DNA of 64,000 nucleotides from an uncultured delta proteobacterium (GCA_963790365.1 CAWBOU010000047.1:71429-135428); one strand, 5' to 3'; numbered from the stretch's first letter, positions 8,007-42,956 are shown. Notes: generated by a model not told the origin, from the sequence alone. Translations and numbers: made by a program.

Positions 8007-9189
8007 ATGGCCGATCTCTTCCACCCCACCGAGGAGCACCGCGAGCTCCGCCGCACGCTCCGCGAGTTCGTCGAGAACGAGGTCGATCCGCAGGCGATGG
8101 CCTCGGATCGAAGCGAGACGTTCAACCTCTCGCTCTTTCGCCGCCTCGGCGAGCTCGGCGTGCTCGGCATCACGGTCGACGAGAAATACGGCGGCGCCGG
8201 GCATGGACGCCGTCGCCGCGGTGATCGTGCACGAGGAGCTCGCGGCGTCCGATCCCGGCTTCTGCCTCGCCTACCTCGCGCACTCGATGCTCTTCGTGAA
8301 CAACTTCTTCCACAACGCGAGCGACGAGCAGCGCGCGCGCTACCTGCCCGACGCCTGCTCCGGCAAGAAGGTCGGCGGCATGTGCATGTCGGAGCCGGGC
8401 GCCGGCACGGACGTGCTCGGCATGCAGCACGACCGCCGTCCGCAAAGGCGACCATTACGTGCTCAACGGCCGGAAGATGTGGATCACGAACGGCGCGATC
8501 TCGCGATACGGAGCTCGGCGACGTCTTCCTCGTCTACGCGAAGACCGGCGACCGCGGGCCGCGAAGCCTCTCGCTGTTCCTCGTCGAGAAGGGCTTCTCC
8601 GGGTTCCGGCTCGGGCAGAAGATCAAGGACAAGCTCGGCATGCGCGCCTCGACGACCGCCGAGCTCGTGTTCGACGGACTGCGCCGTACCGGTCGCGAAC
8701 CGCATCGGCGAGGAGGGCGCCGCCGTCATGCACATGATGCGGAACCTCGAGCTCGAGCGGCTGACGCTCGCGGCGATGAGCCTCGGGCTCGCGCGGCGGT
8801 GCGTCGAGGTGATGAACCGCTACGCGTCCGAGCGGAAGGCGTTCGGCCAGCCGATCCGCGAGTTCGGCCAAGTCCAGCGCCACATCGCCGACTCGTACGC
8901 GAAGTGGATGGCCGGACGGAGCTACGTCTACCAGGTCGCCGGCAAGCTGGATCTCGGCGCGACCGGCAACCGCGTCGACTCCGACGGCGTGAAGCTCTTC
9001 TGCTCGGCGATGGCGAAGGAAGTCGCCGACTCGGCGATCCAGGTGCTCGGCGGGTACGGCTACGTCGGCGAGTACCAGGTCGAGCGGCTCTGGCGGGACG
9101 CGAAGCTCCTCGAGATCGGCGGCGGCACGATCGAGGCGCACCAGAAGAACATGACTCGCGATCTCGCGTCCGCGACGACGCTCGAATGA
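8007..9189 (+). pseudogene. isovaleryl-CoA dehydrogenase-like gene split over 5 frame segments (4 net +1 shifts), or assembly indels
   Basis: Segments: MADLFHPTEEHRELR..EKYGGAG (frame 0) | MDAVAAVIVHEEL..MSEPGAGTDVLGMQ (frame 1) | TTAVRKGDHYVLNGRKMWITNGAI (frame 2) | DTELGDVFLVYAKTG..ELVFD (frame 0) | DCAVPVANRIGEEG..YQVERLWRDAKLLEIGGGT (frame 1). Confidence 0.8.
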
Positions 9190-9632
9190 CCGAGCTTCGG
9201 CGCGCGACGCCGAGCGACGCCGACGCGGTGCTGGCGATGATGCGCGAGTACTACGCGTTCGATCGCCTCGAGTTCGAAGCAGCGGCGGCACGCGCGGCGC
9301 TGGACGGCTTGCTCGCCGATCCCGAGCGCGGAGAGGCCTGGCTCGCCGAGCACGACGGCGTACCGGTCGGCTACGGCGTCCTCTGCCTCGGCTGGAGCCT
9401 CGAGTTTCACGGGCGCGACGCGTTCGTCGACGAGATCTTCGTGGCGGAGAGCGCGCGCGGCACCGGCATCGGCCGCGAGCTTCTCGCGCGCCTCGAGGAG
9501 CGCTGCCGCGCGCTCGGCGTCCGCGCGCTCCACCTCGAGGTCGATCACGAGAATCGGCGCGCGCTCGAGATGTACCGCCGCGCGGGCTTCGTCGACCACG
9601 ACCGATTGCTGATGACGAAACGGATCGCGTGA
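9186..9632 (+). CDS. GNAT family N-acetyltransferase
   Basis: ATG 9186 overlaps the upstream stop (ATGA). Contains VDEIFVAESARGTGIGRELL..MYRRAGF (acetyl-CoA binding Q/RxxGxG/A pattern). Confidence 0.85.
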   Translation: MTELRRATPSDADAVLAMMREYYAFDRLEFEAAAARAALDGLLADPERGEAWLAEHDGVPVGYGVLCLGWSLEFHGRDAFVDEIFVAESARGTGIGRELLARLEERCRALGVRALHLEVDHENRRALEMYRRAGFVDHDRLLMTKRIA

Positions 9633-11773: not shown

Positions 11774-11827
11774 GACCGCCCGCCATGAGGCGTTCCCGGG
11801 CCCGCGTCAATGACTCGGGAACCGATG

Positions 11828-13417: not shown

Positions 13418-14290
13418 ATGCGGTTGGATATCGGAGACTGCGCAATCCGCGGATACGAGGCAGGCGACGTTGCCGCGCTCGTGCGCCATGCGGACAATCG
13501 CCAGATCTGGCTGAACCTACGCGACCGCTTCCCCCATCCGTACACGGCGATCAGCGCTTCCCGCTGGCTCGAGCAGGTGGCGCTCGAGCAGCCGACCGTC
13601 AGCTTCGCGATCGCCACGCCCGAGGAGCTGATCGGCGGCATCGGCTTCGTGCTCGGTAGCGACGTGTTCCGCGAAACGGCGGAGATCGGCTACTGGATCG
13701 GCGAGCCGTTCTGGAATCGCGGCATCGCCACGCGCGCGGTGCGCGCATTCACGGAGTGGGGCTTCGCCGAGCTCGCGCTCCGGCGCATCTTCGCCGGCGT
13801 CTTCGAAACGAACCTCGCGTCCGCCCGGGTGCTCGAGAAGTGCGGTTACGTCTGCGAGGGACGCCTGCGGAAGAGCATCCTCAAGGACGGTCGCGTCCTC
13901 GACGAGCTGCTGTACGCGAGCGGTCAGAGAGGCGTGAGGGACGCTCCTCCTCGGCTCTCTCGACGAGATAACCGCGATCCTCGAGCCGGAGAGGAACGTC
14001 CCCTACCCGCGCGAAACGCTGGTGCGTTGCGCGCGGTGCGCGAGCACTTCGTCGCGATCGCCGACGAGCGTGCCCATCACCCAATCCCAGAACGGCACCG
14101 TCACGTTGAAATTCCACTTCTGCATGAGGCGCGGGTCGTGGTGGATCCCGTGATAGCGGCGGAGCCAGCGCACGAGGCCGAGCTCGCCGATCGGGTTCCC
14201 CTTCGGCAGGTGATACGAGAGATGGAGCCACTCGTAGCTCGTCGCGTACATCATCGTCGTCGCCACATAGAGGAGCGCGACGTTCAGTGA
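13418..14290 (+). CDS. GNAT (RimJ/RimL-like) N-acetyltransferase; the 3' end is probably artefactually extended
   Basis: IGYWIGEPFWNRGIATRAV..RIFAGVFETNLASARVLEKCGY..GRVLDELLYA is a complete RimJ-like core ending near 13925. The ORF then reads through 288 nt of the convergent gene. A +1 frame would stop at TGA 13935-13937, just before a hairpin. Confidence 0.65.
   Translation: MRLDIGDCAIRGYEAGDVAALVRHADNRQIWLNLRDRFPHPYTAISASRWLEQVALEQPTVSFAIATPEELIGGIGFVLGSDVFRETAEIGYWIGEPFWNRGIATRAVRAFTEWGFAELALRRIFAGVFETNLASARVLEKCGYVCEGRLRKSILKDGRVLDELLYASGQRGVRDAPPRLSRRDNRDPRAGEERPLPARNAGALRAVREHFVAIADERAHHPIPERHRHVEIPLLHEARVVVDPVIAAEPAHEAELADRVPLRQVIREMEPLVARRVHHRRRHIEERDVQ
13938..14003. terminator. imperfect 20-bp inverted repeat between convergent genes
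   Basis: GGGACGCTCCTCCTCGGCTC (13938-13957) pairs with GAGCCGGAGAGGAACGTCCC (13983-14002). It abuts the TAG of the 14003..14749 gene. Confidence 0.4.
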
Positions 14291-14749
14291 GGCTACCCAC
14301 CAGAGGATCGCGCCGAGCGGCAGCAGTGTGACGAAGATCAGGAAGAGCCCGTAGGCGGGGATCAGCACGAGGTGAAACTCGCGCCAGTCGCGGATCGCCA
14401 TGTCGTCCGTGACGTAGATCATGTGGTGCTCGGGCGTATGGCGGTCGTAGAGAACGGGCGCGAGGAAGAATCGCCGATGCAGCAGATCGCGATGGATCCG
14501 CCACTCGTTCGCGTTCGTGAACGCCCACGTGAGCGGGATCACGAGCCAGACCCACGGGCTCGGGTCATTGAGCGAAGCGAGACACGAGACAATGACCGTG
14601 ATCGAGAACGCCGAGGGCAATGTGACGTGGACCCAGGGGTTGTACCAGGCCGGTGCGGCGGCCAGGACCTCGGCGCGAAGCGCGTCCCGTTTCTCGACCG
14701 GGAGAAGCTCTTCCTGAGGCTTCTGATATCCCTTCTTCACGGGTCGCAT
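14003..14749 (-). CDS. fatty acid hydroxylase / sterol desaturase superfamily membrane protein
   Basis: Histidine boxes HRDLLHR, HHMIY and HGIHH, plus several hydrophobic helices. Confidence 0.85.
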   Translation of the reverse strand: MRPVKKGYQKPQEELLPVEKRDALRAEVLAAAPAWYNPWVHVTLPSAFSITVIVSCLASLNDPSPWVWLVIPLTWAFTNANEWRIHRDLLHRRFFLAPVLYDRHTPEHHMIYVTDDMAIRDWREFHLVLIPAYGLFLIFVTLLPLGAILWWVASLNVALLYVATTMMYATSYEWLHLSYHLPKGNPIGELGLVRWLRRYHGIHHDPRLMQKWNFNVTVPFWDWVMGTLVGDRDEVLAHRAQRTSVSRG

Positions 14750-14843
14750 GGGGCGCCATCCATAGGCGTCAATCAGCCGCCCTGCGTCAAGGCCCAGTTC
14801 GCCCGACGGAGGGGGCGGTGAGCTCGCTTGACGCCGCGCGCGA

Positions 14844-16005
14844 GTGCCGCGTAGAGCCTTCGCGGTGAGCCTGCTCTTCCGCCTGATCGCGGTCGTCGTC
14901 GGCGTCCTCGCAGTCCTCTACGGCATCGTCTGGTCGATCTATGGAGGCGGCGAGCCGCTGCCCGATCGGACCTCCTCGCCGAGCCTCCCGGCCGCCGCGC
15001 TCGAGGTCGTCGCGGACCTCGAGTAGCCGCCGGGGAACATCGCGGTCTCCGACACGGGCGCGTGTTCTTCACGTTCCACCCCGAGGGCGCGCCGCTGATC
15101 AAGGTCGCCGAGCTCGTCGACGGCAAGCCGATGCCGTTCCCGACCGAGGAGTGGCAGCGGCAGGCCCCTAGCATCCCCTACTTCCAGACGCCGCTCGCGA
15201 TGCGGATCGATCGACAGAATCGCCTCTGGGTGCTCGACCACGCGAGCTACGCCACGGGCACGCCGCGCATCCTCGCGTTCGCGCTCGACAGCCGCGAGCT
15301 CGTTACGAGTACGAGTTCCCGTACGAGGTCGCCGGCCTCGGCTCGATGCTGAACGACTTCCAGGTCTCGCCGTCCGGCGAGCGGATCTACATCGCGGAGG
15401 CGAGCCCGTTCCTCCGCACGCCGGCGATCGTCGTGCTCGACGTGCCCGGGAAGAAAAGCCGCCGCGTCCTCGATCGCGACCGCACGGTGATGCCGAAGGA
15501 CTACGTGATCCAGGCGCCCGGCCGCGACATGATCGTCCTCGGCGTCTACGTGCTCCGGATCGGCGTCGACTCGATCGCGCTCGATCGCAAGGGCGAGTGG
15601 CTCTACTTCGGGCCCGTGAACGGCGACCTCCTCTATCGCGTCCGCGCCGAGGACCTCGACGACGAATCGCTGCCGCAGGAGAAGCTCGTCACGAAGGTCG
15701 AGGACTACTCCGAGAAGACGCTCTCCGACGGCATCGCCACGGATCTCGACGGCAACGTGTACCTCACCGACATGGAGCACTCCGCGATCGTGCAGGTGAC
15801 GCCCGATCACAAGCTCCACACGGTCTTCAAGGACGACCGCCTGCGCTGGCCGGACGGCCTGTCCTTCGGCCCCGATGGATGGCTCTACGTGACGGCGAGC
15901 GCGCTTCACCACGTGATCCTGAAGAGCTCCGCGGACATGCGCGCGGCCGCTCCTTTCCAGATCTTCCGCCTCCGGCCGGGACCGCAGGGGATCCCTGGGC
16001 ATTGA
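14844..16005 (+). pseudogene. major-royal-jelly/yellow-type (L-dopachrome tautomerase-related) beta-propeller gene with an in-frame TAG and two net -1 frame changes
   Basis: TM/signal VSLLFRLIAVVVGVLAVLY..LEVVADLE, TAG (15024-15026), PPGNIAVSDTG | RVFFTFHPEG..RLWVLDHASY..ALDSRELV | EYEFPYEVAGLGSMLNDFQVSP..YLTDMEHSAIVQV..WPDGLSFGPDGWLYVT. Confidence 0.75.
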
Positions 16006-17174: not shown

Positions 17175-18601
17175 CTACTTCTTCGGCTTCGACCACTCCG
17201 TGTGGAACGAGCCCTTCTTGTTGTCGATCCGCTCGTACGTGTGCGCGCCGAAGAAGTCGCGCTGCGCCTGAATCAGATACGCCGGGACGCGCGCACGGCG
17301 GAACGTGTCGAAGTAGCCGAGCGACGCGGCCATCGCGGGCGCGGTGATGCCGAGTCGGATCGAGAAGCCGACGGTCGCTTCCCAGCCCTCGATGCGCTTG
17401 CGGATCTCCTTGCGAAAGCCGTCGTCGAGCAGCAGGTTCGCAAGCTCGGGATTCTTCGCTGAACGCCTCGCGGATCTTGTCGAGGAAGATCGCGCGAATG
17501 ATGCAGCCGCCTTTCCAGATGCGCGCCAGCTCGGCGAGCTTGAGGCCGTACTCGAGCTCCTGCGAGGCACGCCGCAGGAGATCGAAGCCCTGCGCGTACG
17601 AGCAGATCTTCGACGCGTAGAGCGCCTCGCGGATCTGCTCGATCGCCTTCTTCTTCCCGCTCCGCAGCGGCTTCGGCATCGGCGTCTTGTAGGCCTTCGC
17701 CGCCTCGACGCGGATGTCCTTGATCGAGGAGAGGATGCGCGCGTCGACCGCGGCGGTGATCGTCGGGATCGGCACGCCGAAGTCGAGCGCCGCCTCACCG
17801 GTCCACTTGCCCGTGCCCTTCTGCCCCGCCTTGTCGAGGATCAGGTCGACGAGCAGCTTTCGGGAGCCCTGGTCGTCCTTGAAGTTCACGATCTTCGCGG
17901 TGATCTCGATCAGGAACGACTTGAGATCACCCTCGTTCCACTCGGCGAACATGTCGGCGATCTCGGCGGAAGACAAGCCCGAGTCCGTGACGCAGCAGGT
18001 CGTAGGCTTCGGCGATGAGCTGCATGTCGCCGTACTCGATGCCGTTGTGCACCATCTTCACGAAGTGGCCGGCGCTCCCGACGCCGAAATAGGTGACGCA
18101 CGGCCCGCTGTCGGCCTTGGCCGCGATCTTCGTGAGGATCGGCTCGAGGTGGTCGTAGGTCTTGCGGTCGCCGCCCGGCATGAGGCTCGGTCCCCAGAGC
18201 GCGCCTTCCTCGCCGCCGCTCACGCCCATGCCGAAGAACTTGATGCCGGTCGGATCGAGCTCGGCGATCCGCCGATCCGTGTCGGGGTAATGCGAGTTGC
18301 CGCCGTCGATGATGACGTCGCCCGGCTCGAGGTGCGGACGGAGCGCTGCCGCGACGTCGTCGACCGGACTTCCGGCCTTGACCATGAGAAGTATGCGGCG
18401 CGGCCGCTCGACCTGCGCGGCGAGCTCCGCGAGCGTCTTCGCGCCGACGAAGCGCTTGCCCGCGGCGCGACTGCCGAGAAACGACTCCGTCTTGTCCCAG
18501 TCGCGATTGTAGACCGCGACCGAGAAACCATTCCGCTCGACGTTCATAGCGAGGTTCTCGCCCATCACGCCGAGGCCGACGAGACCGAACTCTTGCGCCA
18601 C
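17175..18601 (-). pseudogene. gnd: 6-phosphogluconate dehydrogenase (decarboxylating) with two single-base insertions, or assembly indels
   Basis: GTG 18601 preceded by GGAGA: VAQEFGLVGLGVMGENLA..GGNSHY..MVHNGIEYGDMQLIAEAYDLLRHGLGL | SSAEIADMFAEWNEGDL..WKGGCIIRA..IREAFS | KNPELANLLLDD..AQRDFFGAHTYERID. Shifts near 17976 and 17462. Confidence 0.85.
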
Positions 18602-18618
18602 GAAAATTCTCCTTTTGC

Positions 18619-19344
18619 TCAGGCGGCTTCGCCGGCCGACGCGCGATCGAGCCACCATACGAGCTCGCCGCGCGACGGGCGGACGCCGAGGATCGGATAC
18701 TGCTCGACCGCGGCCGGGTCGTCTTGGGAAGCGAGGCACTTGGCGATGATGTCTTTCTTGTCACCGCCGGCGACGAGCACCCAGACGCGCTTCGCCGCGT
18801 TCAACAGCGGGTAGGTGAACGTCATCCGCCGGGTGTTCAGCTTCGGCACTTCGTTCATCACCACGAGGCGGGTCCGCTCCTTCGTCGCGGCCGTGCCCGG
18901 GAACAACGACGCCGTGTGACCGTCCGGCCCGATGCCGAGGAGGATCAGATCGACCGCGGGGATGCCGTCCGTCCCCGCCGGCACGCGCTCGCGGATCTTC
19001 CGCTCGTAGGCTTCCGCCTCGCCGGCTTCGGCGCGCATGCGGTGCGTGACGATCGGGATCTCGTGGAGGAGCGCCTTCTCGACCATCGCGAAGTTGGAGT
19101 CCGAGTGGTCGGGCGGCACCGCGCGCTCATCGCCGAAGAACACCTCGGCGCGCGCCCACGGCACGGCGGCGGCGAACGGCGGCTTCGCGAGCGTCTCGTA
19201 GAGACGCTTCGGGGTGGAGCCGCCCGAGAGCGCGATCGTCACGGGAGGGGTCGGCGATTCCGCGACGAGCGCGGCGAGCGCCTCGGCCACGCGACCCGAG
19301 ACGTCCTTCGCGTCGGCCGCGATCACCAGCCGCCGCTCGCTCAC
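18619..19344 (-). CDS. pgl: 6-phosphogluconolactonase
   Basis: GTG 19344 overlaps the zwf TGA (GTGA). Contains IALSGGSTPKRLYE..FFGDERAVPPDHSDSN..LLGIGPDGHTASLFPG. Intact frame. Confidence 0.85.
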   Translation of the reverse strand: MSERRLVIAADAKDVSGRVAEALAALVAESPTPPVTIALSGGSTPKRLYETLAKPPFAAAVPWARAEVFFGDERAVPPDHSDSNFAMVEKALLHEIPIVTHRMRAEAGEAEAYERKIRERVPAGTDGIPAVDLILLGIGPDGHTASLFPGTAATKERTRLVVMNEVPKLNTRRMTFTYPLLNAAKRVWVLVAGGDKKDIIAKCLASQDDPAAVEQYPILGVRPSRGELVWWLDRASAGEAA

Positions 19345-20940
19345 ATCTCGTCCAGCGAGCGCCAGCGTGCGGTCGTCCCTTCGAGCAAGCGATTCGCCTC
19401 GTCGGGTCCGTCGCGTGAACGGATAGTAGTTCGGGAACGTCGGCGGCGGCAGCGCCGCCCAGCCCTCGATGGATCGAGCTGATGAAGCGCCACGCGTACT
19501 CGACCTCGTCGGAGCGCGTGAACAGCGACGGGTCGCCGCGCAGCGCGTCGAGCAGCAGCCGCTCGTAGGCCTCCGGCGAGCGCTGCTGGAACGCCTCGCC
19601 GTAGATAGAAGTCCATGTCGACTTCCTCGAGCTGGATCTTCATGCCCGGCTGCTTGCACGCGAACGAGAGGCTGATGCCCTCGTCGGCTGGATGCGCATC
19701 ACGAGCCGGTTCGAGCGCGGGATCGCCGTGCTCGACCTCGTCGTCGTCGACCGCGCTGGCGGAAGAGATGCATCGGCGGCTGCTTGAAGCTCACCGCGAT
19801 CTCGGAGACGCGCTTCGTCAGCCGCTTGCCGGTGCGCAGCAGGAACGGCACGCCCGCCCAGCGCCAGTTGTCGATGTGGATGCGGAGCGCGACGTAGGTC
19901 TCGGTGATCGACTTCGGGTCGACGCCCTCTTCCTGGCGGTAGCCCTTCACGACCTTGCCGTCGATCTCGCCGACACCGTACTGGCCGCGCACGGTGTCGG
20001 CCGCGACCTCCTTCGTGGTGAGCGGCAGGATCGCCCGCAGCACCTTCACCTTCTCGTCGCGGATCGACTGTCGCCTCGAGCGCCGACGGCGGCTCCATCG
20101 CGATCAGGCAGAGGAGCTGCAGCATGTGGTTCTGCACCATGTCGCGCAGCGCGCCGGCGGTGTCGTAGTAGGCGCCGCGCCGCCCTCCATGCCGAGCGTC
20201 TCGGCGACGGTGATCTGCACGTTGTCGACGTACTTCTGGTTGAAGAGCGGCTCGAAGATCGAGTTGCCGAAGCGGAAGCGACAGGATGTTCTGGACGGTC
20301 TCTTTCCCGAGGTAGTGATCGATGCGGTAGATCTGGCTCTCGTCGAGCGACGGACGTGACGTCGCGGTTCAGCTGCGCGCGCGCTCTCGAGGTCGCGCGC
20401 CGAACGGCTTCTCGATGATGACGCGCGACCAGGCGGCGTCGCCGCGGGCGGACGCACGAGGCCGGCCTCGGCGAGGCTGCTTGATGATCGTCGCGAAGAA
20501 CTCCGGCGCGACCGAGAGGTAGAAGAGCCGGTTGCCCGGCAGCGAGGCTTCCTTCTCGAGCCCCTCGACGCGCTCACGCAGACCGCGGAACGACTCCGGA
20601 TCGTCGGCGTTGCCCGGCGAAGTAGTGGAGCGAGCGAACGAGCGGGTGCTCCGCCGTCACGTTCGGGTCCGCATGCTCCTTCAGCGCTTCGAGCATCACC
20701 TCGCGGAACTGCTCGTCGCTCATCGGGCTTCGCGAGAACCCGACCACCTTGAAGCGTATCGGGGAGGAAGCCGTCCTGATGGAGGTGATAGAGGGCGGGG
20801 ATCAGCTTGCGTTTGCTGAGATCACCCGACGCTCCGAAGATGACCACCGTGAAGGGGTCGTGAACGCGGATCTGTTCCGAGCCCGCGCTTGCCGGCGCAG
20901 AGACCGAAACCGAGGCTTTGGGGCGGGTCGTCGGTTCCAA
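19341..20940 (-). pseudogene. zwf: glucose-6-phosphate dehydrogenase broken into about 15 frame segments, or assembly indels
   Basis: TTG 20940 after GGAGGAGG. Recognisable pieces in changing frames: [20 protein letters not shown]; [17 protein letters not shown]; [17 protein letters not shown]; LAEAGLV; [11 protein letters not shown]; [21 protein letters not shown]; [12 protein letters not shown]; [20 protein letters not shown]; [18 protein letters not shown]; GPDEANRLLEG..DEM. Confidence 0.85.
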
Positions 20941-21076: not shown

Positions 21077-21433
21077 CTACCAGCCGCGGCGATGATCGTA
21101 CCGCCAGTCGAGGCGATCGCCGCGACGGTCGAGACGCTCATCGATGCGGTCACCGCGCCGATCGTACCACTCCTCGATCCGATCGCCCCTCTCGTCGAGG
21201 TAGCGAGCGCGCCGATAGTCGCCACGCGCCGCGGCACGTTCCGAGAGCCGATCGTAGTGATCCTCGATGCGATCGCCGCGCCGGTCGAGGCGCGCGTCGA
21301 TGCGATCGCCACGACGGTCCCAGCGGTGCTCGACGCGGTCGCCGCGGTCGCGGCAGAATTCGTCGGCCTGCGCCGCGCCCGCCGTCAGGAGAAAAGCCAA
21401 GCTTCCGGTTGCCAACAGGATTCGCGTCTTCAT
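21077..21433 (-). CDS. small secreted protein made of DRRGDRI(D/E) repeats
   Basis: ATG 21433: MKTRILLATGSLAFLLTAGAAQA signal, then six RGD-containing repeats (RDRGDRVE, DRRGDRID x3, DRRGDRIE, ERGDRIE, DRRGDRLD). Confidence 0.65.
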   Translation of the reverse strand: MKTRILLATGSLAFLLTAGAAQADEFCRDRGDRVEHRWDRRGDRIDARLDRRGDRIEDHYDRLSERAAARGDYRRARYLDERGDRIEEWYDRRGDRIDERLDRRGDRLDWRYDHRRGW

Positions 21434-21560
21434 GCCCGATAGACCGCGCTCGCGCCGAAACGGTTCACGCGAGCCGAATGCCGAGCGGCCGCAACATCGT
21501 CTCATTGGTGCGGTCCGATGCAGCGCGTCGCTCGGTGAGACGATCGGAAGCAGCGTCCCC

Positions 21561-22103
21561 TCAGGGGAGTGACTGGCTGGTCGACGGAATCGACCGCTCG
21601 CCACGATCGGTGAGGATCCGTCCGCTCGCCACGCGAACCGTCGGACGCTCGCTCGTGTCGGCGTCGACCGCGCAGCTCCTCACGGACAGCGTGAACGGTT
21701 GCTGGCTGCGCGGCGGGACGACGCCCGCGAAGGGGAACTCACGCGACTGACACGACGGCGGCTGGCCGGCGCCGCCGGCAGTGAAGGGAAAGTTCGTTTC
21801 GTAGGAAAGCGCCGTCCCCTGACGGACCTGCAGCGGCTCATCGCAAGGATTCCCGACCGATGCGGTCACGACGAAGTCGACGTGCTCGATGTCGGAGTCG
21901 CGGGAGACGGTCGCGCGCCGGATCGCGACCTGCGCGTCGACCGTGAAGCCGGCGCAGACCGGCGCGCCCTGCGGGAGCGCTCGCGCCGGCGGCTTGTCGC
22001 TCCGAAAGTGAGGCTGCGCGAGCGCGAGCTCGGCGATCCCGACGAGCGTGACGACGAGCGGCGCCCTCACGGCGCCGGGGATTCGCTGAACGACGGCACG
22101 CAT
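21561..22103 (-). CDS. secreted hypothetical protein (last gene of the 34.4-21.6 kb operon)
   Basis: N-terminus MRAVVQRIPGAVRAPLVVTLVGIAELALAQP (signal-like), four Cys, no family recognised. Alternative GTG start at 22070. Confidence 0.6.
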   Translation of the reverse strand: MRAVVQRIPGAVRAPLVVTLVGIAELALAQPHFRSDKPPARALPQGAPVCAGFTVDAQVAIRRATVSRDSDIEHVDFVVTASVGNPCDEPLQVRQGTALSYETNFPFTAGGAGQPPSCQSREFPFAGVVPPRSQQPFTLSVRSCAVDADTSERPTVRVASGRILTDRGERSIPSTSQSLP

Positions 22104-29053: not shown

Positions 29054-29054
29054 C

Positions 29055-30464: not shown

Positions 30465-31174
30465 GATGACGTCTCGAGAAGCTTCTTCAGGCGCTCCTCG
30501 GCCTCCACGTCGTTCGCGTTCAGCTCGAGCGCCTTCTTGTAGCCTTCGATCGCCGCGTCCGTCTTGCCGGCCTTCTCGGCGGCGAGCGCGGCGTAGTAGT
30601 GCTCCGCCGCGCGGAGCGATTTGTTGTTCGCCACTCCGGCGCCGCTCGCGCGCTTCGCGACCGCGAGGCCGAGACCGCGTACGAGCTGGTCGGAGAGCTT
30701 GCCGGCGACGGTCCGCGGCGACCCGGGCGAGCCGCGCTCCGTCACCGAACGGAGCACCACGCCGCTCTCGACGTCGACGATCCGCGCATCGACGCTGAGC
30801 GAGCCCGCGATCGCCATGAAGCCGCCGAAGATCATCGTCTGCGCACCCAGGATCTTACCCAAACGAATTTTCGTCTCGTCCGCGGCGAGGTCGGAGCTCC
30901 CGAGCTTTTGCTCCGCGAGGACGTTCGCGAGCTTCTGCCGTTCGACCACGACGAGCTGCTTCGATTCCACGAGCCGCGTGGTGATCGCGTCCGGCAGCCA
31001 CTCGCGGAGGAAGTCCAGCCGCTTCCGGCCCTCGATGGAGTTGTTGTCGAACGGAATCACGGCGACGGTCTGGCGCCGCGTGGCCACCTTCACCTTGGCC
31101 TTCGCTTCGGCGGCGAGCGCCTCGCCGCCCGCGAGAGCGATCGCCGTCCCGAGCACCAGGATGCCGAGCTTCAT
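30461..31174 (-). CDS. CsgG/LpoB-like domain + TPR protein
   Basis: ATG 31174 (ATGA overlap). Signal MKLGILVLGTAIALAGGEALA; VAVIPFDNNS..LVVVERQKLANVLAEQKLGSSDL..LGKILGAQTMIFGGF..DARIVDVESG; C-terminal TPR (AEHYYAALAAEKAGKTDAAIEGYKKALELN). Confidence 0.8.
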   Translation of the reverse strand: MKLGILVLGTAIALAGGEALAAEAKAKVKVATRRQTVAVIPFDNNSIEGRKRLDFLREWLPDAITTRLVESKQLVVVERQKLANVLAEQKLGSSDLAADETKIRLGKILGAQTMIFGGFMAIAGSLSVDARIVDVESGVVLRSVTERGSPGSPRTVAGKLSDQLVRGLGLAVAKRASGAGVANNKSLRAAEHYYAALAAEKAGKTDAAIEGYKKALELNANDVEAEERLKKLLETSS

Positions 31175-33084
31175 TCTTTCGACTCGAGCAGGCGCTGACC
31201 CTTCGCGAACGAGCTCCCGGAGACGCCCTTGGCCACGGCGAAGCCGTCCTCGACCGAGGTGAGCTCGAGCTTGCCGATCGTTTTCTTCCTCGTGCCCACG
31301 ACTTTCCCGTTCACCTCGACCGGCACTTCGTCGCCGATCACGTTGAAGCGCTGCCCGGCTTTCGCGCCGTGCTTCTTGCCGATGCCGACGACGATCTCTT
31401 CGCCTTCGACCGAGGCGATCGTGCCCTTGAGCGGATACTCGCCCCGCAGCTTTTCTTCGATCGTCGTGGCGACCTTCTCGGCGAACGTGCCGATCTCTGC
31501 GGGATCCGCGAGCGTCTCCTGCACCGTCGAGCGGACCGCCGTCGTTTCGGTATCGACCAACCGGAGCTGCAGGCGGCTCTGGCCGCCCGCCGGCTGGAAA
31601 CCGCCGAGACCGACGACGGACGCCGCGAAGAGCTTGCCGAGCTTCAATTGCGTTGCCGGATCCGCGAGCTCCGAGGAGCCGAGCTTCAGCTCCTGGAGGA
31701 GCTTGTCGAGGGTCTCGCGCTCGACGAGCGTGACTCGGCCCGATTTCTCGAACCCCTGCGTGAGGCCGATCAGGAACGCATCGTCGAGCCCGTCGCGCGC
31801 GAGCGGCCCGAGCTCCATCTTCAGATCGACGAGCGAGATGACGAGCTTCCGCGGCTCCCACTCGTCCGCGGGCTTCGCCGTCGCGGCGCCGCTCTTGTAG
31901 GCCTTGGCGAGGTCGTCGACGAGCTTGTCGGTGAATTTCTGCCGCTCGAGATCGAGCTTCTCGCGCTCGGTCCGCTCGATCTTCGTGAGGAGAGCGGCGA
32001 CGAGCTCGTCGTCGGGCGCGAGCGCCTTGGCCGCGGTGAGCGTCTTCTTCGCCTCGGCGGTCTTGCCGGCCTTCTCGAGCGCGGCTCCCTGATTGCTCCG
32101 CGCCGCGACGAGGAACGGCTCCTTCTCGATCGCCTGGTCGTACGTGCGGATCGCCTCTTCGGGCTCGGTCTCGCGGGTGACCAACGCGAGATTGTTGAGC
32201 GCCATCGCCGACTGCCAGCCGAACTGCGCTTGTTTCTGTCCGGCTTCCTCGAACGAGGCCTTCGCGAGCTCGAGCTTCCCGCCGCGAGCGGCGATCTCAC
32301 CGCGGACGATCGCCGCCGGCGCGCTGTCGGCGCCCGCCTTCTTCGCCTGCGCCTCGGCTTCATCGAGGTTGCCCTTCCGCAGCGCGACCGCCGCGAGCCC
32401 CTCGGCCGCGACCTTTCCGCCCGTGCCTTCGAGCTTGCCGAGCGCGCGGAACGCCTTCTCCGCTTCGGCGAGGTTGCCTTTCTCCAGCATCGCGTAGGCG
32501 GCGCCCGCGCGCGCCTCGACGCTGTTCGGGTCCGCCATCAGCGCATCGCTGAACACGTCGGCGGCGAGCTGCGGGTTGCCGCGCGCGAACTGCTTCTCGC
32601 CGACGGAGATCAGCACCTTCTGCGAGGCGAGCCCGCCGCCGCGCACGACGTCGCCGATGATGCCGTCCGGCGAGACGACGTAGGTGAGCGGCACTCCATC
32701 GCGGGCGCCGTACGTCGAGAACGTCTCGCCCTTCGTGTCCGCGCACACCGGGTACCGCAGCGAGTGGGCGTTCACGAACTCGACCAGCTCCTTCGGCGGA
32801 TCGCCGGCCACCGACACGACCGCGAGGCCGTTATCGCCATGCTTGGTCGCGATCGTGCCGAGCGTGACGGCGAGATTCCGCGACGGCTCCGAGCCGAGCG
32901 ACATGAACGAGACGATCGCGATCGGCGACTCGTGGAGCGACTCGAGCGAGATCTCCTTGCCGGTCACCGTGGTCAGGCGGAACGGCGGTGCGGGCTTGCC
33001 GACCTCGAGGTCCGCGGCCATGGATGCCACGGCGTAGAAGAGGAAACTGGGAAGGAGTGAAAGGAGGCGGGAAGCATTCGTCAT
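31171..33084 (-). CDS. thioredoxin-fold (TlpA/redoxin-like, Cys-less) + TPR + CsgG/LpoB-like domain protein
   Basis: ATG 33084 (ATGA overlap with the kinase stop). GKPAPPFRL..IAIVSFMSLGSEPSRNL (SEPS where redoxins have CxxC); TPR block; VISLVDLK..VTLVERETLDKLLQELKLGSSEL..LGKLFAASVVGLGGF. Confidence 0.8.
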   Translation of the reverse strand: MTNASRLLSLLPSFLFYAVASMAADLEVGKPAPPFRLTTVTGKEISLESLHESPIAIVSFMSLGSEPSRNLAVTLGTIATKHGDNGLAVVSVAGDPPKELVEFVNAHSLRYPVCADTKGETFSTYGARDGVPLTYVVSPDGIIGDVVRGGGLASQKVLISVGEKQFARGNPQLAADVFSDALMADPNSVEARAGAAYAMLEKGNLAEAEKAFRALGKLEGTGGKVAAEGLAAVALRKGNLDEAEAQAKKAGADSAPAAIVRGEIAARGGKLELAKASFEEAGQKQAQFGWQSAMALNNLALVTRETEPEEAIRTYDQAIEKEPFLVAARSNQGAALEKAGKTAEAKKTLTAAKALAPDDELVAALLTKIERTEREKLDLERQKFTDKLVDDLAKAYKSGAATAKPADEWEPRKLVISLVDLKMELGPLARDGLDDAFLIGLTQGFEKSGRVTLVERETLDKLLQELKLGSSELADPATQLKLGKLFAASVVGLGGFQPAGGQSRLQLRLVDTETTAVRSTVQETLADPAEIGTFAEKVATTIEEKLRGEYPLKGTIASVEGEEIVVGIGKKHGAKAGQRFNVIGDEVPVEVNGKVVGTRKKTIGKLELTSVEDGFAVAKGVSGSSFAKGQRLLESKE

Positions 33085-34391
33085 CGAGTCTCCTCGGCGA
33101 CCAGCGCGAGCTCGATCTGTACGCGCTGATTCGGTTTCACCACGGCGGTCTGACGCGCGGTGTAGTAACCTGCCTTGCGTAGCTCGACCTCGTAACGCCC
33201 GGGCGGAACTTCGAGCGTGAACGGCGTGCGGCCGACCATCTTGCCGTCGACGTAGACGTCCGCACCGTCAGGGTCGGTGATGGATTCGACGAAGCCGCGC
33301 TCGACGACCGCCGGCGGCGCCGGCGGTGGTTGCGGAGGCGCCGTGTCCGGGGCACGCGCGGGCTTCGCCGCGAAGCGAAGGTAGAGCGCGGCCCCGAGGG
33401 CGAGCACGAGCGCGAGCGCGACCACACTGCCGACGAGCCCACCCCGCCCGCGCGCCGGCAGGGCCGCGGGCGCCGGCTTCCCGGGCGCGGCTGTCGACTG
33501 GAGCAGCTCCGTCGCGTCCGCGGCGGGCGTCGCGACCGTCTGTTGCGCGGCTTGCGGCGCCGGTTGCCTCGCCGCGATCCGCTCGAACGCTTCGCGCGCA
33601 GCGCCCGCGTCGGCGGGACGGCGCTCGCGGTCCTTCTCGAGGAGGCTCATCACGAGGTCGCGGAGATCCTGCGGGACCGCAGGAGGGAGCGGCGGCGGCG
33701 CCTCGTTCAGGTGCTTGAACATCATCGCTTCGAGGGTGCCGGGAAACGGCGGGGCACCCGCGAGCATCTCGTAGGTCATCGCGCCGAGCGAATAGAGATC
33801 GGCGCGGCCGTCGATCTCCTCGCCGCGCCACTGCTCCGGTGGCATGTACCGCGGCGTACCGACGACGAAGCCCGTGCTCGTGAGGTTCGCGCCGTCGTTC
33901 GCGAGCTTGGCGATGCCGAAGTCCGCGACCTTGACGTGGTCACCGCCCGCCGTCTTGATCACGAAGACGTTCGGCGGCTTGAGATCGCGGTGCACGATTC
34001 CGAGCGGCGGCTTATGCGCGTCCGCGAGCGCATCGCAGATCTGTTGGGCGATTCGCGCCGCGCGTTGCGGCGGCAGCGGCGCTTCTCGCTTCAGCAGCTC
34101 ACCGAGCGTCTCGCCGCGAATCAGCTCCATCGCGAAGTAGAGCGCGCCCTCCGGGGTTCGCCCCGCGTCATAGACGGTGACGGCGTGAGGATTCGACAGG
34201 CTCGCCGTGACGCGGACCTCACGGAGGAAGCGTCGGGCGAACACTTCGTTCGACGCATGCGCGGCGTGCACGGTCTTCAGGGCCACTTCGCGAAGCGCCT
34301 CTCCGTCGGGACCGAGCTGCTCGGCGCGGTAGACGGTGCCCATCCCGCCCTCGCCGAGCGTCCCCAGAATGCGGTACTTGTCGACGATCAA
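33081..34391 (-). CDS. Ser/Thr protein kinase with TM segment and C-terminal PEGA domain
   Basis: TTG 34391: [50 protein letters not shown]; [22 protein letters not shown]; PEGA-like [34 protein letters not shown]. Confidence 0.85.
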
Positions 34392-34474
34392 TCGGGATTC
34401 TCTTTCGACGCTACAACACCGGTTGCGCCGGTCGCAAGATCGGCAAATGTCTCTACCGAGGAGGTTCCGCGACG

Positions 34475-36075
34475 ATGAACGACCGAGAGCTCTGGGATCG
34501 CTACCGCCGTCATCTTTGTGTCGTCGACAGTCTCGGGCTCGAGCTCGATCCGTCGCGGATGCGCTTCGGCGACGACTTCTTCGACCGCATGGCGCAACCG
34601 ATGGCGCAGGCGTTCGACGAGATGGAGGCGCTCGAGCGCGGCGCGATCGCGAACCCCGACGAGAATCGCATGGTCGGGCACTACTGGCTTCGCGCGCCCG
34701 AGCTGGCGCCGACGCCGGAGCATCACTCGGGCGATCCGAGAACACGCTGGCGGCGATCCACGGCTTCGCCGCGGACGTCCACGCCGGGCGCATCCGCCCG
34801 GAGAAGGCCGACCGCTTCCGCAGGATCCTCGTGGTCGGCATCGGCGGCTCGGCGCTCGGTCCGCAGCTCGTGGCCGATGCGCTCGGCGGGCGCGCAGGAC
34901 GCGATGCGGCCGTCGTTCCTCGACAACACCGATCCGGACGGCATCGACCGCGTGCTCGGCGGCCTCGGCGACGAGCTCGCGGCGACGCTCACCGTCGTCA
35001 TCTAGCAAGTCCGGCGGCACCAAGGAAACGCGCAACGGCATGCTCGAGGCCGCGCGCCGCGTATCCGCGCGGGGGCTCACGTTCGCCCGGCACGCGGTGG
35101 CGGTGACCGGCGAGGGCAGCGAGCTCGACCGCCACGCGGTCGCGGAGAAGCTGGCTCGCGCCGCTTCCCGATGTGGGACTGGGTCGGCGGCCGCACGTCC
35201 GAGCTTTCCGCGGTCGGTCTCCTGCCGGCGCGCGCTGCAGGGGATCGACATCGACGCGCTCCTCGCCGGGCGCGCGGGACATGGACGTCGCGACGCGGGT
35301 CGGCGACGTCAAGCGGAACCCCGCGGCGCTGCTCGCGCTCATGTGGCATCACGCCGGGGACGGCCGAGGCAAGAAGGACATGGTGATCCTGCCCTACAAG
35401 GACCGCTTGCTCCTCATGCAGCAAGTACCTCCAGCAGCTCGTGATGGAGTCGCTCGGCAAGGAGCTCGATCGCAAGGGCCAGGTCGTGAACCAGGGCATC
35501 GCCGTCTACGGCAACAAGGGCTCGACCGATCAGCACGCCTACGTGCAGCAGCTCCGCGACGGCGTGAACAACTTCTTCGTCACGTTCATTGAGGTGCTGA
35601 ACGATCGCGCAGGCGACATCGATGGCCGTCGATCCGGGCGTGACGAGCGGCGACTACCTGCTCGGCTTCCTGCTCGGCACGCGACGCGCGCTCTTCGAGA
35701 AGGACCGCGAGTCGATCACGATCACGGTGCCCGAGGTGAGCCCGCGCACGCTCGGCGCGCTGATCGCGCTCTACGAGCGCGCGGTCGGCTTCTACGCGAT
35801 CGCTCGTCGACATCAACGCCTATCACCAGCCCGGCGTCGAGGCGGGCAAGAAGGCGGCGACGGCCGTGCTCGAGCTGCAGGGACGCGTGCTCGCCCACCT
35901 GAAGGGGGGCGGGTCCGGCACGGCGGAAGCGATCGCCGCGGCCGTCGGCGCGCCGGAGGCGGCCGAGACGATCCTGCACGTCCTTCGACACCTCGCCGCC
36001 AACGGCCGCGGCGTGGAGGCGTCGGTCGCCAAGTCCCCGTTCGAACAGAGCTTTCGCCTCGCCCAGGCTCGTTAG
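34475..36075 (+). pseudogene. pgi: glucose-6-phosphate isomerase in about 12 frame segments, or assembly indels
   Basis: Pieces in successive frames: [27 protein letters not shown] | ITRAIRE | [24 protein letters not shown] | [16 protein letters not shown] | SKSGGTKET.. | [22 protein letters not shown] | [12 protein letters not shown] | ..[18 protein letters not shown] | [31 protein letters not shown] | [15 protein letters not shown] | [15 protein letters not shown]. Confidence 0.85.
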
Positions 36076-37916: not shown

Positions 37917-39027
37917 TTACCCCGTATGGCACTCGGCGCACTTCGTCGGGCCGCCGTCCTTCTTATGACAATCGATGCATTGCGTGTGGTACGCGTCCTC
38001 GAAGCTCGGGCAGGCCTTGTTCTTCTTCCCCACCGTCGCGCCGTTGCACTCGTTCGCGGTGTGGCAGCCCGAGGAAGAGCACGAGTACGAGGGCACCGCC
38101 CCGCCCTTCGCCTTCACCGGGTGATGACACGTCTCGCACTTGATCGAGTAGTCTTCCCAATGCGCCTTGTGCGTGAACGGCGTGGCCGGCCGCTTCTTCG
38201 CGGTGCCGGCGATCGGCTCGAGGTTCACGTTGTCGGGCCCGTTGCCGGCCGGCTTCTTCGCCGGTGCCGCCTTCGGCTGCGGCGGCCGGCTTCGCGGCGG
38301 GCGCCTTCGTGCCGCCCTCCGCGGCCGGTGCCTTCGCAACTTCCGTCTTCTTGTCGGCGGGAGCGGCCTTGGCCGGCGCCGGCTTCGCCGCGGGATCCGC
38401 GAGCCGCGCGGTCTCGACCCAGCCCTCGATCGCGCCGCCGTCGATCACCTGCGTGCGGACGCGCGACCAACCCTCGCGATCCTCCAGCACCTCGACGTCG
38501 GTGCGGCCCTGGAACTCGCCGAGCACCGCGCCACTCGGCGACGAGGCGAGCTCGGTGCCGCGCGCGGCGACCGCGCGGCGTGCGAGCCGGATCGGCGTCG
38601 GCTCGGCGACGGGCGCGGGCTTGTCGGCGACCGCGGCGGGCGGCTCCGGCTTCGGCTCGTCGACCACGACGGTCTTGCCTGCGGCCTCGTCCTTCGGCTC
38701 GGCGGCCGGCGCCGCCGGCTCGGTCTTCGGCGGCGCCGCCTTGGCGACTTCCTTCGGCGCCGCTTTCCCGTCGGCGCTTTCCTTCGCCGCGGCGCTCTCC
38801 TTTGCCTCGTCCTTGGCAGCCGAGTCTTTCGCCGGCTTCTCCTTGCCGGGCTTCGGCGTGTGCGCCGAGAGCGCGGCGCCGACCCGCGTCGCGGCCTTCG
38901 GCGTCTTCAGCCGAGTTTCGACGATCGGCGTGCGCCCCGCCGCGCCGCTTTCCTGGTCGCGCCCGCACGCAACCAGCACGAGAAGCGCAAGCCCGACCGA
39001 AACACCCGCTCGTCGAAGGCCGCTCAT
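37917..39027 (-). pseudogene. lipoprotein: bacterial SH3-like domain + Ala/Pro/Lys linker + tetrahaem cytochrome c3-like domain (one frame change near 38285)
   Basis: ATG 39027 after GGGAGAG (ATGA overlap with the upstream stop). [21 protein letters not shown] lipobox; ..LGEFQGRTDVEVLEDREGWSRVRT..GWVETARL. After the shift: FTHKAHWEDYSIKCETCHH, CSSSGCH, CIDCH, CAECH. Confidence 0.75.
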
Positions 39028-42000
39028 TCGCTCTCCCGCAGGCGAACGCCGGGCGCTTCGCGGAGCCTCACGCCCGGCCCCTCGCGCAGCTTGATGCCGG
39101 GCGCCTCGCGGAGCTTGATCCCGGGCTGCTCGATCACCGGCTGGCCGCGACGAACGCGCTCGACGCCTTCCGGCGGCGGCGCGGCCTCCGCGGCGACCGT
39201 CTGGAACGTGAGCTCCTTGCCGTCGTCGGGCGCGAAGTCCGTGACGGTGTAGAGCTCGCCGTTGCGCACGTAGAGCCGTCGCATCTCGTCCGCCGTGAAC
39301 GGGCGGCCGCCGCGGCGGCCGAAGACGGCGACCTGGTTGCCGGTCTCGTCGACCGCGCGATCGCGGTCGAGGCCCTTCGAGAGCGCGATCGCCGGGCCGT
39401 GCGTCGGGAACGATGGCGATCAAGTGCGGCTGCGGCCTCGGGCTGAAGCCGAAGTGCCCGGAGCTTCCCGTCGGCGACGTGAGCTGCAGCACGCGGAGGC
39501 CGTTCTTGCCGTCCGCGACGTAGGCGAAGAGGCTCGCGTTCGTCATGCCGACTGCGGACGCGCGCGCGTCGTTCATCTCGCCGCCCGCGTCGAACGTCTC
39601 GACGAGCTTCGGCGTCATCGGCTTCTCGACGTCGACGATCGCGATGCCCTGCGCGCCCGCTGCGACGTACGCGTACGTGCGCGCCACGTAGACGTCGTTC
39701 GCCGCGGCGATCGGCACCTTCGCGTCGGGCACAACGACCGGTTTGTCATGCTCGGTGATGTCGAGGACCTTGAGGCCCTCGGCGTCGGCGACGAACGCGT
39801 AGCGGAACTGGCGATCGATCGCCCGCGGCTTGACGATCGCGGGCGCGCCGATCTCGGCGGTCACGCGGGGATGGAGCGGATCGTCGAGGTCGACGACGAC
39901 GAGCCCGCGGTCGCAGAGCACGTAGGCGTACGTGCCGGTGATCGCGACGTTGCCGCGCCGTCGAGGACGCCGCCCGGGTTGAACGTCAGCGGCGCGCTCG
40001 AGGAAGTTGTTCGCGGGATTGCCGTCGAGCAGCGTCGCGGCGTGCACGAGGATCAAGCCCTCCTCGCGGTCGGTCACGTAGAGGTAGCGCGTAGAGCGGA
40101 TGGATCGGCTGCTCCTCGTTCTCGGCGAGCCGGTCCGCGCGGGATCGACCGCGAGCGTCGCCGGCGCCGCGACCGAGGTCGCGTCCTTCGTCTTCACGTA
40201 GAGGCGCTGCCCGAGCGGCGAGACGGGCGCCGTGGTGATGCGCTCCGAGAACGCCCTTGTTGTCGATGTTGGCGACGTCGTAGACGCGAAGGCCGCCCGG
40301 CCCGTTCGCCGCGTAGAGGTACTCGCCGCGCAGCTGCAGGCTCTGCACCTCGTCACCGCGGCCGCACAGCCAGGAGACTCGAGGATGTCGTTGCCGGGGT
40401 GCTCGATGACCTCGTCGAGCTCGCGATCGCGCTCGACGTGGCGGCGGTATCGCATCGGGATAGGCGAGCGGTGGAGCTGGCTGCCGATCACCGCCTGCGG
40501 CTCGTCGCCCTCGGTGACCGCCACCGCCTCGAGCCCTTCGTCCTCCGAGCCCGACGTACGCGAAGCGGCCGAAGAAGTTCACGAAGCTGCGTGCCGTGGA
40601 GCAGCAGCTGCGCCATCCACGCGTTGTTGTCGCCTCGGTCGGAGACGTGGCAGTCCGTGCAGACCTTCGTCTCCGTGCGCGCGCACGGTGTGCGGCACGT
40701 GCGTGTTGAACGCCTGGCCGGTGAAGCCCTCCGCGGAGATCGTCTGCTGCTGCGAGTAGAACCACTCGCGGTTCTGCGTTCTGCGAGCTCACGAGCACGC
40801 GCGCTCGACGAGCGCACCGGCGAGATCCGGCTGCCCGCGGCGGTGCCGTCGCTGCCGAGCATGAAGACGTCGTCGCGCAGCACCTGGAAGTTGTAGCCGG
40901 TCCAGTTGCGGAGCTTCTCGCCCTCGTTGTGGAGAGTTCGTGCGGCGGTTCGCCTGCTGCGAGCAGATGGCAGCCGAAGCAGCTCGTCATCCACGAGGTG
41001 TGGCACGTGAAGCAGGTCATCTTGTCGTCGCCGTGCGCGAGCGCGCTCGCGTCGTCCGGCACGTCGCCCCACGTCTTGCCGTCTCTGCGGATGGTCTTCG
41101 CGAGGCGCGAGGCCTCGTTGTAGTGCGCGCTCGCGGGATCCACGGTGTCGCGCGTCTGCACGACTTCCCACTCGACGTTCGGCGTCACCGCCGAGCGCTG
41201 GAAGAGCTTGGCGCCCTTCTTGAAGAACGCGCTCGCCGAACGCCGTGCGGTTGTACTTCTTCAGCGGATTTCCGCCCGCGGGCCCGCGGGTCTTCCAGTC
41301 GCGCGCCGTCGGATCGGCGAGCGCGGAGATCGAGCCGTGGCAGTCGATGCACTGGATCTCGATCGCGTTCCGCACCTCGCCGTAGAGCTTGCCGTCGCCG
41401 TGCGCGTCCTGCTCGAAGTGGCAGTCGACGCAGTGCATCCCCTTCTCGAGGTGGATGTCCTTGAGATGCACGGCCTTCTTGAAGCGCTCGGGATCGTCCC
41501 ACGGGATCGTCTTGCCGCGCGCGTCGAGCAGGTTGCCCTTGCGATCCTGCTTGTAGACGTTCCGGAAGATCCAGCCGTGGCCGTGGAAGTCGGCGAACTG
41601 CGTCTTCGTGAGCTTCGGGTTCAGATCCGTCAGGTTCGCGAGGAACTCCGGCGTCGGACCAAGGCCGCGGAGCGCCGCGCGGCCTCGGGTTCGCCGTCTC
41701 GAGCGTCGACGCTGCTCGCTCGCGGCGAGCGCCTCTTCGGCTCGCGCTGATACGAAGCGCTCGCCGTCGGTCTCGTTGTCCCACCAGGTCGTGCCGTAAT
41801 ACGTGTTCACGACGTTCGTGCCCGGATGCATGTGGCAGACGACGCACTGGCTCGACGGGATCGCGCTCGTGAACTGTGCCGGATCGGGTGGCCGGGCTCG
41901 TCCTTCGGGATCGTCGGGTCGACCGTCGCCGTCTGGCCGCGGTTGCCGAACTGGGCCCACGGGCCGGAGTGCACCGGGTCGCGATCGTTCGCGTAGACGA

Positions 42001-42956
42001 CGTGGCAGCCGGTGCAGCCGCTCGAGCGGTAGTCGCCGGGGTGATCGTTCGTGCCGAGCATGTGGAGGATCGGGTCGAGCAGACGCGTCTTCTGCAGGCC
42101 GAAGAAGACCGGGTCCGTGCGATTCGCCGTGCCGAGGCCGCGCTGGCTGAGTCGCCGCTCGGGCGCCCCGGAGGATCCGGCTCGAGCACGTTGATGTTGC
42201 CGATCTCGAGGGCTTCCGCCCGCCGCGCTCGAAGAAGCGGAGGATGTTGCCGGGCTGGCTGATCTCCCACCGCGCGAGCGGCGCGAGGAACGGCAGGATC
42301 CCGCGCTTTTTCGTCGCCTCCGCGTCGGGCGCATCTTTGGCGACGAGCGCCTGCGGCTTGCCGTCGCGGCCGTAGCTCTCGCCGAAGCGCGGGTCCTTCA
42401 CCGGGATCGAGCCGTTGTTGTAGAGCGCCGCGCCCCAGAGGCTCGCCCCGTGGGTCATCATGCTCGTCTTCACGCGCGCGACCTGATCCGCGTGACATCC
42501 GTCGAGCCCGCACGTGCGGTCCGCGACGCGGAGATCCCCGGGGTTCATGAACTGTACGAACTCGGGGCTCTCCTTCAGGAACGCCGCGTTCGAGCGGACG
42601 GGGTTCGCGCTCGTCTTGAAGACGTCCGCCTGAAGCGGCGCGACGTGGGCGGTCTCCTTGTCCTTGGCGCCGATGGTCCCCCCGTGACAGTCGACGCACG
42701 CGAGCGGGATGTCCGCCTCGTGCATCGACGCCGAGTCCGTCGAGGTGTGACAGGAGACGCAGCCCTCGTTCTTGCGCGTGACGTCGTCCGACGATTGGCT
42801 CATCAGGTCGACGGTCGGCGCCTTCGCGGTCTCCGCCGCGGCGGGGGTGTCCGCGCTCGCAGGCTCCGGCGCCTCGTCGGCGGTCGTCGCCACCGGCGCG
42901 ACGATCAGAAAGAGCGCGAGGAGAGTGCGCGACAGGGGGAAAGTTCTTCTTACCAC
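39024..42956 (-). pseudogene. about 1300-codon multihaem cytochrome c fused to an LVIVD-repeat beta-propeller, read through at least a dozen frame changes (or assembly indels)
   Basis: Signal MVRRTFPLSRTLLALFLIVAPVA. Haem sites CVSCH, CVDCH, CGLDGCH, CTGCH, CVVCH, CVDCH, CIDCH, CFTCH, CFGCH, CTDCH. Then, with no stop, GEYLYAANGPGGLRVYDV, GTYAYVLCDRGLVVVDLDD, YAFVADAEGLKVLDI, YAYVAAGAQGIAIVDV, FAYVADGKNGLRVLQL. C-terminus has 4x PG(I/V)(K/R)LRE. Confidence 0.7.

Follow-up and report, generated by a model that had tools for sequence, protein, structure and literature searches.

Collapsed-strain consensus in metagenome assembly is a problem that Strainberry and Strainy reportedly address. In metagenome-assembled genomes (MAGs) built from long reads, indel errors and truncated proteins are common, and the errors depend on coverage (PMC9262707; preprint 10.1101/2021.08.23.457338). 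The 64-kb stretch of DNA analysed here (C47:71429-135428; hereafter the window) belongs to a MAG of 4.61 Mb in 69 contigs with a GC content of 68%, which is evidently a high-contiguity, long-read assembly of a Candidatus Binatia-like bacterium. Frameshifts interrupt several genes of the window, among them zwf, gnd and pgi. A preliminary description of the window offered two readings of these breaks: a locally faulty consensus, possibly of strains collapsed into one, or genuine recent inactivation. We favor the former. With a probability that we put at roughly 93%, the sequence evidence argues that the breaks arose in the assembled consensus and are no feature of the organism's DNA.

To locate the breaks, we decoded every contig in six frames by a Viterbi algorithm whose codon-usage model had been trained on 609 long open reading frames (ORFs) from the genome. 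In the window, rapid same-strand frame switching was seen at 7947-9185, 14856-15971 and 34389-36065 on the plus strand and at 17178-18620, 19344-20873 and 37941-42923 on the minus strand; the remainder consisted of long single-frame segments. Exact shift counts came from a frameshift-aware protein-to-DNA aligner that used intact relatives as guides; those for the IVD-like gene, gnd and the SH3-cytochrome c3 gene were taken from three-frame translation and/or the Viterbi path. The broken genes were identified by Pfam searches of the stitched translations. Altogether, 57 frameshifts and one in-frame stop lie in seven genes, which occupy about 12 kb within 8007-42956. The remaining ~52 kb, rpiA-tkt-tal included, hold none. 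Insertion-type shifts outnumber deletion-type ones by 47 to 10; the preliminary description had noted both kinds, with +1 events dominating in pgi, IVD, gnd and zwf.

The clustering of these events far exceeds chance. Compared with a uniform model, as the preliminary description had proposed, 57 Poisson-distributed events per 64 kb would leave the last 21 kb empty with a probability of ~7e-9 and the region from 21.1 to 34.4 kb empty with a probability of ~7e-6. The earlier list of broken genes was recovered almost item by item: its counts for the IVD-like gene (4), the MRJP-like gene (2 plus a stop), gnd (2), pgi (11) and the SH3-cytochrome c3 gene (1) were reproduced, and alignment raised those for zwf (from about 15 to 16) and cytochrome-LVIVD (from at least 12 to 21). 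The stretches that it had called unbroken (1-8000, 18619-19344, 21077-34391 and 42950-64000) are indeed intact. So too, the oxidative pentose-phosphate branch and pgi are struck while rpiA-tkt-tal remain intact.

Once their frames are restored, the broken genes look ordinary. The zwf, pgi, cytochrome-LVIVD and MRJP-like genes can be read from end to end against intact relatives, and the ~12 kb of all seven broken genes contain one stop. The indels of zwf comprise 13 one-base insertions, one two-base insertion and two one-base deletions; its protein is 76% identical to a family-level ortholog in the frameshift-aware alignment. Only for this gene was the DNA of a relative compared. The short contig L020, of JGI metagenome origin, holds an intact zwf with 95.4% nucleotide identity to the window copy, from which it is separated by the 16 indels and 81 substitutions. 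The 72 coding substitutions are distributed over the codon positions as 19, 14 and 39 (39/72 at the third), a pattern that shows purifying selection on zwf up to the present. Sixteen true breaks of the frame are thus implausible. The pgi product aligns over 529 of 529 residues, at 90.7% identity, with an intact JGI protein (P0121). In a large protein collection, the best identities to the stitched queries were 91% for zwf and 87% for pgi, and the closest public proteins of both are labelled Candidatus Binatia.

The multihaem cytochrome-LVIVD gene is the most heavily struck, with 15 insertions and 6 deletions. Nevertheless, its aligned CXXCH motifs are preserved, and Pfam places LVIVD and cytochrome c3/c7 matches on the stitched product, which is 72% identical over 1254 aa to a single-frame, 1284-aa ortholog (G004:C30). 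The ~1280-aa protein is encoded in one open frame there and in two further genomes of the same class (G009:C42 and G020:C14), with identities of 52-72%. Judged from these relatives, cytochrome-LVIVD is a genuine, widespread gene family despite the 21 shifts in the window. Among the other products, the MRJP-like protein has a Pfam MRJP match and is 61% identical over 380 aa to an intact, 386-aa ortholog from G003 in the frameshift-aware alignment. The stitched IVD-like protein yields full-length matches to Acyl-CoA_dh_N, _M and _1; the gnd product covers the 6PGD profile from 1 to 290 of 290 and also matches NAD_binding_2; and the SH3-cytochrome c3 protein matches Cytochrom_CIII and SH3_3. With the breaks read as consensus errors, zwf-pgl-gnd, pgi, the IVD-like acyl-CoA dehydrogenase (ACAD), the MRJP-like gene, the SH3-cytochrome c3 gene and cytochrome-LVIVD most likely work in the organism.

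The identity of the inserted bases is informative. In zwf, the inserted base is usually unlike both of its neighbors, and 9 of the 13 single-base insertions add a synonymous alternative to the neighboring third-codon base (GGG+C, TAT+C, ACA+G and GTC+G among them), against a null of 0.23-0.31 (P = 0.0006-0.005). A protein-guided version of this assay, covering zwf, pgi and the cytochrome, gave 25/39 vs. a null of 0.415 (P = 0.004). Of the synonymous-alternative kind, too, were 132 of the 269 single-base indels between duplicated contig ends of the assembly (null 0.31, P = 4e-10). Homopolymer errors were considered as a cause and rejected: the zwf insertions do not extend runs, and just 87 of the 269 duplicate-copy indels are of the homopolymer type. 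Inspection by eye of the 16 zwf contexts showed no common sequence or methylation motif. The placement of insertions at synonymous sites suggests a consensus that merges the reads of diverged strains living side by side.

The window typifies the whole MAG, in which the Viterbi decoding flagged 2401 suspect frame switches. Per 5-kb bin, their mean was 2.47 and their variance 20.3 (variance-to-mean ratio 8.2), and 440 of 889 bins were empty, compared with ~75 expected under a Poisson model. We delineated 175 patches with a median length of 1.26 kb that account for 71% of the events while covering 6.1% of the bases. They are present on nearly all 69 contigs without regard to gene function, extend over ~0.5-7 kb, and contain roughly one indel per 100 bases, mostly one-base insertions. 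Genome-wide, 1522 insertion-like shifts were counted vs. 879 deletion-like ones; at real gene boundaries, which served as the control, this ratio was reversed (153 vs. 409). The GC content of the patches is 70.5%, as opposed to 68.0% in the rest of the genome.

A self-megablast of the assembly located many contig ends that repeat a locus of another contig: C1/C6 (12 kb), C21/C69, C33/C42, C41/C46, C65/C64 and C59/C49. The MAG therefore holds redundant sequence. Frame switches differ between the copies: C1 has 15 and C6 has 3, C41 has 2 and C46 has 12, C59 has 2 and C49 has 10, C40 has 11 and C50 has 3, and another pair has 0 and 5. The copies are identical for kilobases, their differences being confined to patches of mismatches and gaps. 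In most pairs, 50-62% of the mismatches in the divergent patches fall at third codon positions; this bias identifies them as real differences between co-assembled strains. Three pairs (C65/C64, C42/C33 and C22/C32) are 11% different with mismatches spread evenly over the codon positions, and those mismatches are plain noise. Two contig ends fold back on themselves as inverted self-repeats (C22:1-5979 and C52:72330-78018), with ~89% identity and ~200 gaps.

A comparison of sibling MAGs, also proposed in the preliminary description, pointed in the same direction. The high-contiguity siblings G005 and G006 (~20 contigs each) have 12, 1 and 6 shifts in their zwf genes and 1 and 3 in their pgi genes, all of which are free of stops. 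In G002, one transketolase copy is broken into five pieces. In the fragmented siblings G001, G003, G004 and G007, the genes are in single frame. The defect tracks assembly type rather than lineage. Conservation of the frameshift positions across MAGs was entertained and discarded: the overlap between the 12 sites in the G005 zwf and the 16 in the window is not beyond chance, and the contiguous MAGs are thus broken at different positions.

How might such a consensus have arisen? Reads of more than one haplotype would have piled up and been polished together wherever strains or close relatives that live side by side diverge. At polymorphic, mostly synonymous third-codon sites, the consensus may have kept both alleles in tandem, with a one-base insertion as the result. 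Where coverage was very thin, for example at contig ends, random raw-read noise would have been added on top. We found no published description of both alleles being kept in tandem as a one-base insertion; here we infer it from codon-position statistics. The genome-wide patches, the discordant duplicates and the insertion-dominated, synonymous-site spectrum all comport with the earlier proposal of a locally bad consensus. That proposal had spoken of conserved genes collapsed from several strains. Collapse is probable, but conservation as such does not mark the struck stretches, which look like islands of strain divergence instead; tkt and AcrB in the window are equally conserved yet clean.

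Several observations weigh against this explanation. Taken by itself, pgi gives no significant synonymous-alternative signal (5/11, P = 0.49). The mixed-haplotype enrichment (49-64% vs. 31-42%) is statistical and accounts for only part of the indels. No intact copy from the same strain was found; the closest relatives were a zwf with 95% DNA identity and a pgi with 91% protein identity. The window is covered by none of the duplicated contig ends, such that the argument from duplicates would apply there by analogy. Finally, patches are only modestly overrepresented at contig ends (35 of 138 vs. ~24 expected).

Genuine recent pseudogenisation would have cost the organism glucose-6-phosphate dehydrogenase (G6PDH), 6-phosphogluconate dehydrogenase (6PGDH) and glucose-6-phosphate isomerase (PGI), and with them the large cytochrome and the IVD-like ACAD, while the non-oxidative branch was retained. 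The shifts do stand in the deposited sequence, and gnd, zwf and pgi are struck while pgl and rpiA-tkt-tal are untouched. Yet 16-21 indels per gene without a nonsense codon, accompanied by third-position-biased substitutions, are unlike gene decay. The insertion bias of 47:10 also runs contrary to the deletion bias in bacterial pseudogenes that Mira, Ochman and Moran are said to have described in 2001. The hallmarks of relaxed selection failed to appear in the spectrum of indels, in the single stop or in the zwf substitutions (19/14/39). The patches are not specific to the pentose-phosphate pathway, as the same kind of patch occurs at 175 genome sites irrespective of function; duplicated loci conflict with each other, and the genes are intact in short-read-like sibling MAGs. 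Moreover, the genome has a second zwf (G000:C13:40714-41551, with one shift between its two frames) as well as another, distant gene of the PGI family (G000:C12:82202-82969, in a 570-aa open frame), and the inactivation claim is thus weaker even on its own terms. We regard it as very improbable. A still smaller, practically negligible chance attaches to programmed recoding, in which ribosomal frameshifting or transcriptional slippage would restore the frame in vivo. Indeed, the segments remain open, and the genes are full length once the frame is restored; however, 11-21 shifts per gene would be unprecedented, no slippery motif or homopolymer common to the sites was found, the orthologs are single-frame, and sibling MAGs are broken elsewhere.

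More serious is the possibility that the patches are plain low-coverage or unpolished long-read noise without strain mixing, each patch being a place where coverage fell to between one and three reads or where reads for polishing were lacking. The coverage dependence of consensus quality in long-read MAGs (PMC9262707), the slight enrichment of patches at contig ends, their elevated GC content and the evenly distributed 11% differences of C65/C64, C42/C33 and C22/C32 are all consistent with it. Such noise, however, should ignore codon position, whereas the insertions are enriched at synonymous third-position sites and the mismatches inside patches are third-position-biased in most duplicate pairs; the classic form of long-read noise, errors in homopolymers, makes up only a minority. 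As a complete explanation, we therefore consider noise unlikely, if far from negligible. Both it and strain mixing are readings of the breaks as artefacts, and both probably contribute. Going beyond a merged consensus, the patches might be footprints of population structure, that is, 1-3-kb islands of divergence among Binatia strains such as imported recombination tracts at zwf, pgi, gnd, an ACAD and the large cytochrome-LVIVD gene, with the recurrence of breaks in zwf and pgi marking divergence hot spots. Of the family's four high-contiguity MAGs, three have a broken zwf; for pgi the number is likewise three, provided that the PGI genes of G005 and G006, which are distant (36% identical), are included. 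We offer this idea tentatively and are inclined to doubt it. If it were true, the noisy MAG would carry a hidden map of strain-variable loci, and the recurrent breakage of zwf and pgi would reflect real divergence hot spots in central carbon metabolism.

Table 1. Broken and intact features of the window, and frameshifted loci of sibling MAGs.
Feature	Coordinates	Strand	Observation
IVD-like acyl-CoA dehydrogenase	8007-9189	+	4 insertion-type shifts, ~8198, 8432, 8501, 8675
GNAT ORF	13418-14290	+	290 aa
Fatty-acid hydroxylase gene	14025-14855	-	
MRJP/SGL-like beta-propeller	14838-16005	+	2 deletion-type shifts (~15052, 15306); in-frame stop at 15024
gnd (6-phosphogluconate dehydrogenase)	17175-18620	-	2 insertion-type shifts, ~17460 and 17966
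pgl (6-phosphogluconolactonase), between broken gnd and zwf	18619-19344	-	Intact, single frame; Glucosamine_iso/6PGL 8-225 of 225
zwf (glucose-6-phosphate dehydrogenase)	19341-20940	-	16 indels from 19413 to 20757; no stops
Clean 13 kb: TPR/CsgG lipoprotein genes, NHL-repeat protein, MacB-ABC-HlyD-OEP exporter, Ser/Thr kinase-PEGA gene	21077-34391	-	
CsgG-like/TPR lipoprotein genes (three)	22070-23719; 30464-31180; 31174-33084	-	Intact
pgi (glucose-6-phosphate isomerase)	34475-36075	+	11 one-base insertions from 34721 to 35799; no stops
SH3-cytochrome c3 (class III)	~37941-38981	-	1 insertion-type shift near 38280 (Viterbi)
Multihaem cytochrome-LVIVD, ~1280 aa	39027-42956	-	21 shifts from 39414 to 42211; no stops
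HbpS-like protein	44719-46341		
FHA/multihaem gene, 1233 aa	46466-50164	-	Intact
cNMP-binding 4Fe-4S protein	51253-52863		
rpiA, tkt, tal (non-oxidative pentose-phosphate branch)	52793-57082	+	Intact, single frames
Sibling loci L030, L034, L033	G005:C14:161300-164300; G006:C20:11500-14000; G006:C7:96800-99300		Insertion-dominated; zwf 12 and 6, pgi 3

The intact parts of the window were scrutinized as well. The products of rpiA, tkt and tal give full-length Pfam matches to Rib_5-P_isom_A, Transketolase_N/pyr/C and TAL_FSA. In the clean 13 kb, the Viterbi path contains no short frame segments, and the Pfam matches span whole ORFs. Hidden frameshifts in 1-8000 were sought and dismissed, since the frame changes at ~1140, 2590 and 4220 are normal stop/start overlaps between genes. 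The GNAT ORF, whose 3' end had been listed earlier as possibly broken, overruns its domain into the antisense of the fatty-acid hydroxylase gene, and near 13940 there is only a weak, 84-nt signal in another frame.

Other features of the window are observations in their own right. The intact, 1233-aa gene combines three FHA domains, cytochrome c7/c3-like multihaem regions with CXXCH motifs, a 4Fe-4S dicluster domain and a pyridine-nucleotide disulphide oxidoreductase in one chain, which is an unusual combination; the genes for the cNMP-binding 4Fe-4S protein and the HbpS-like protein adjoin it. The three CsgG-like/TPR lipoprotein genes flank the MacB-ABC-HlyD-OEP exporter. Among them, one has an LDL-receptor class A domain, and another is fused to AhpC/TSA and FlgT_C.

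The frameshifts are almost certainly not a real biological feature, and their value is that of a caveat for genome annotation. In the output of gene callers, zwf, gnd and pgi will appear as pseudogenes or fragments, as will the IVD-like dehydrogenase and the multihaem cytochrome of 1280 aa, and a metabolic model would then wrongly lack both the glucose-6-phosphate isomerase step and the oxidative branch of the pentose-phosphate pathway. We advise annotating the oxidative pentose-phosphate genes and pgi, together with the IVD-like dehydrogenase and the cytochrome locus, as genes that are present and that probably function. The same caution applies to ~6% of the MAG and to the high-contiguity sibling MAGs of the family. 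The estimated completeness of this MAG (65.8%; 4.6 Mb, 69 contigs) may itself have been lowered by broken genes, markers included. Synonymous alleles in tandem would provide a practical diagnostic of collapsed-strain consensus errors, favoring strain-aware polishing or frameshift-aware annotation.

How does this pattern compare with known systems? It resembles the indel frameshifts of Nanopore or PacBio CLR assemblies and MAGs, for which IDEEL serves as a measure (Sereika et al. 2022, PMC9262707; proovframe, 10.1101/2021.08.23.457338): there, too, one-base indels split normal genes, completeness estimates are lowered, and contiguous long-read MAGs are affected while short-read ones are spared. 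Classic Nanopore errors, however, concern homopolymer lengths and are spread along the genome, whereas here non-homopolymer insertions are concentrated in patches of 0.5-7 kb that are separated by error-free stretches of 10-20 kb. Collapsed-strain consensus is another system that the MAG would resemble: its duplicate ends differ mainly at third codon positions, more than one haplotype of the species is probably present, and the errors would sit where haplotypes diverge. Bacterial pseudogenes in decaying genomes, such as those of recently host-restricted lineages, likewise place frameshifted genes beside intact neighbors. Yet real pseudogenes have few lesions each, along with stops, deletions and relaxed substitutions; the broken genes of the window, in contrast, are conserved in sequence and nearly free of stops, with an insertion bias and as many as 21 indels in a single gene.

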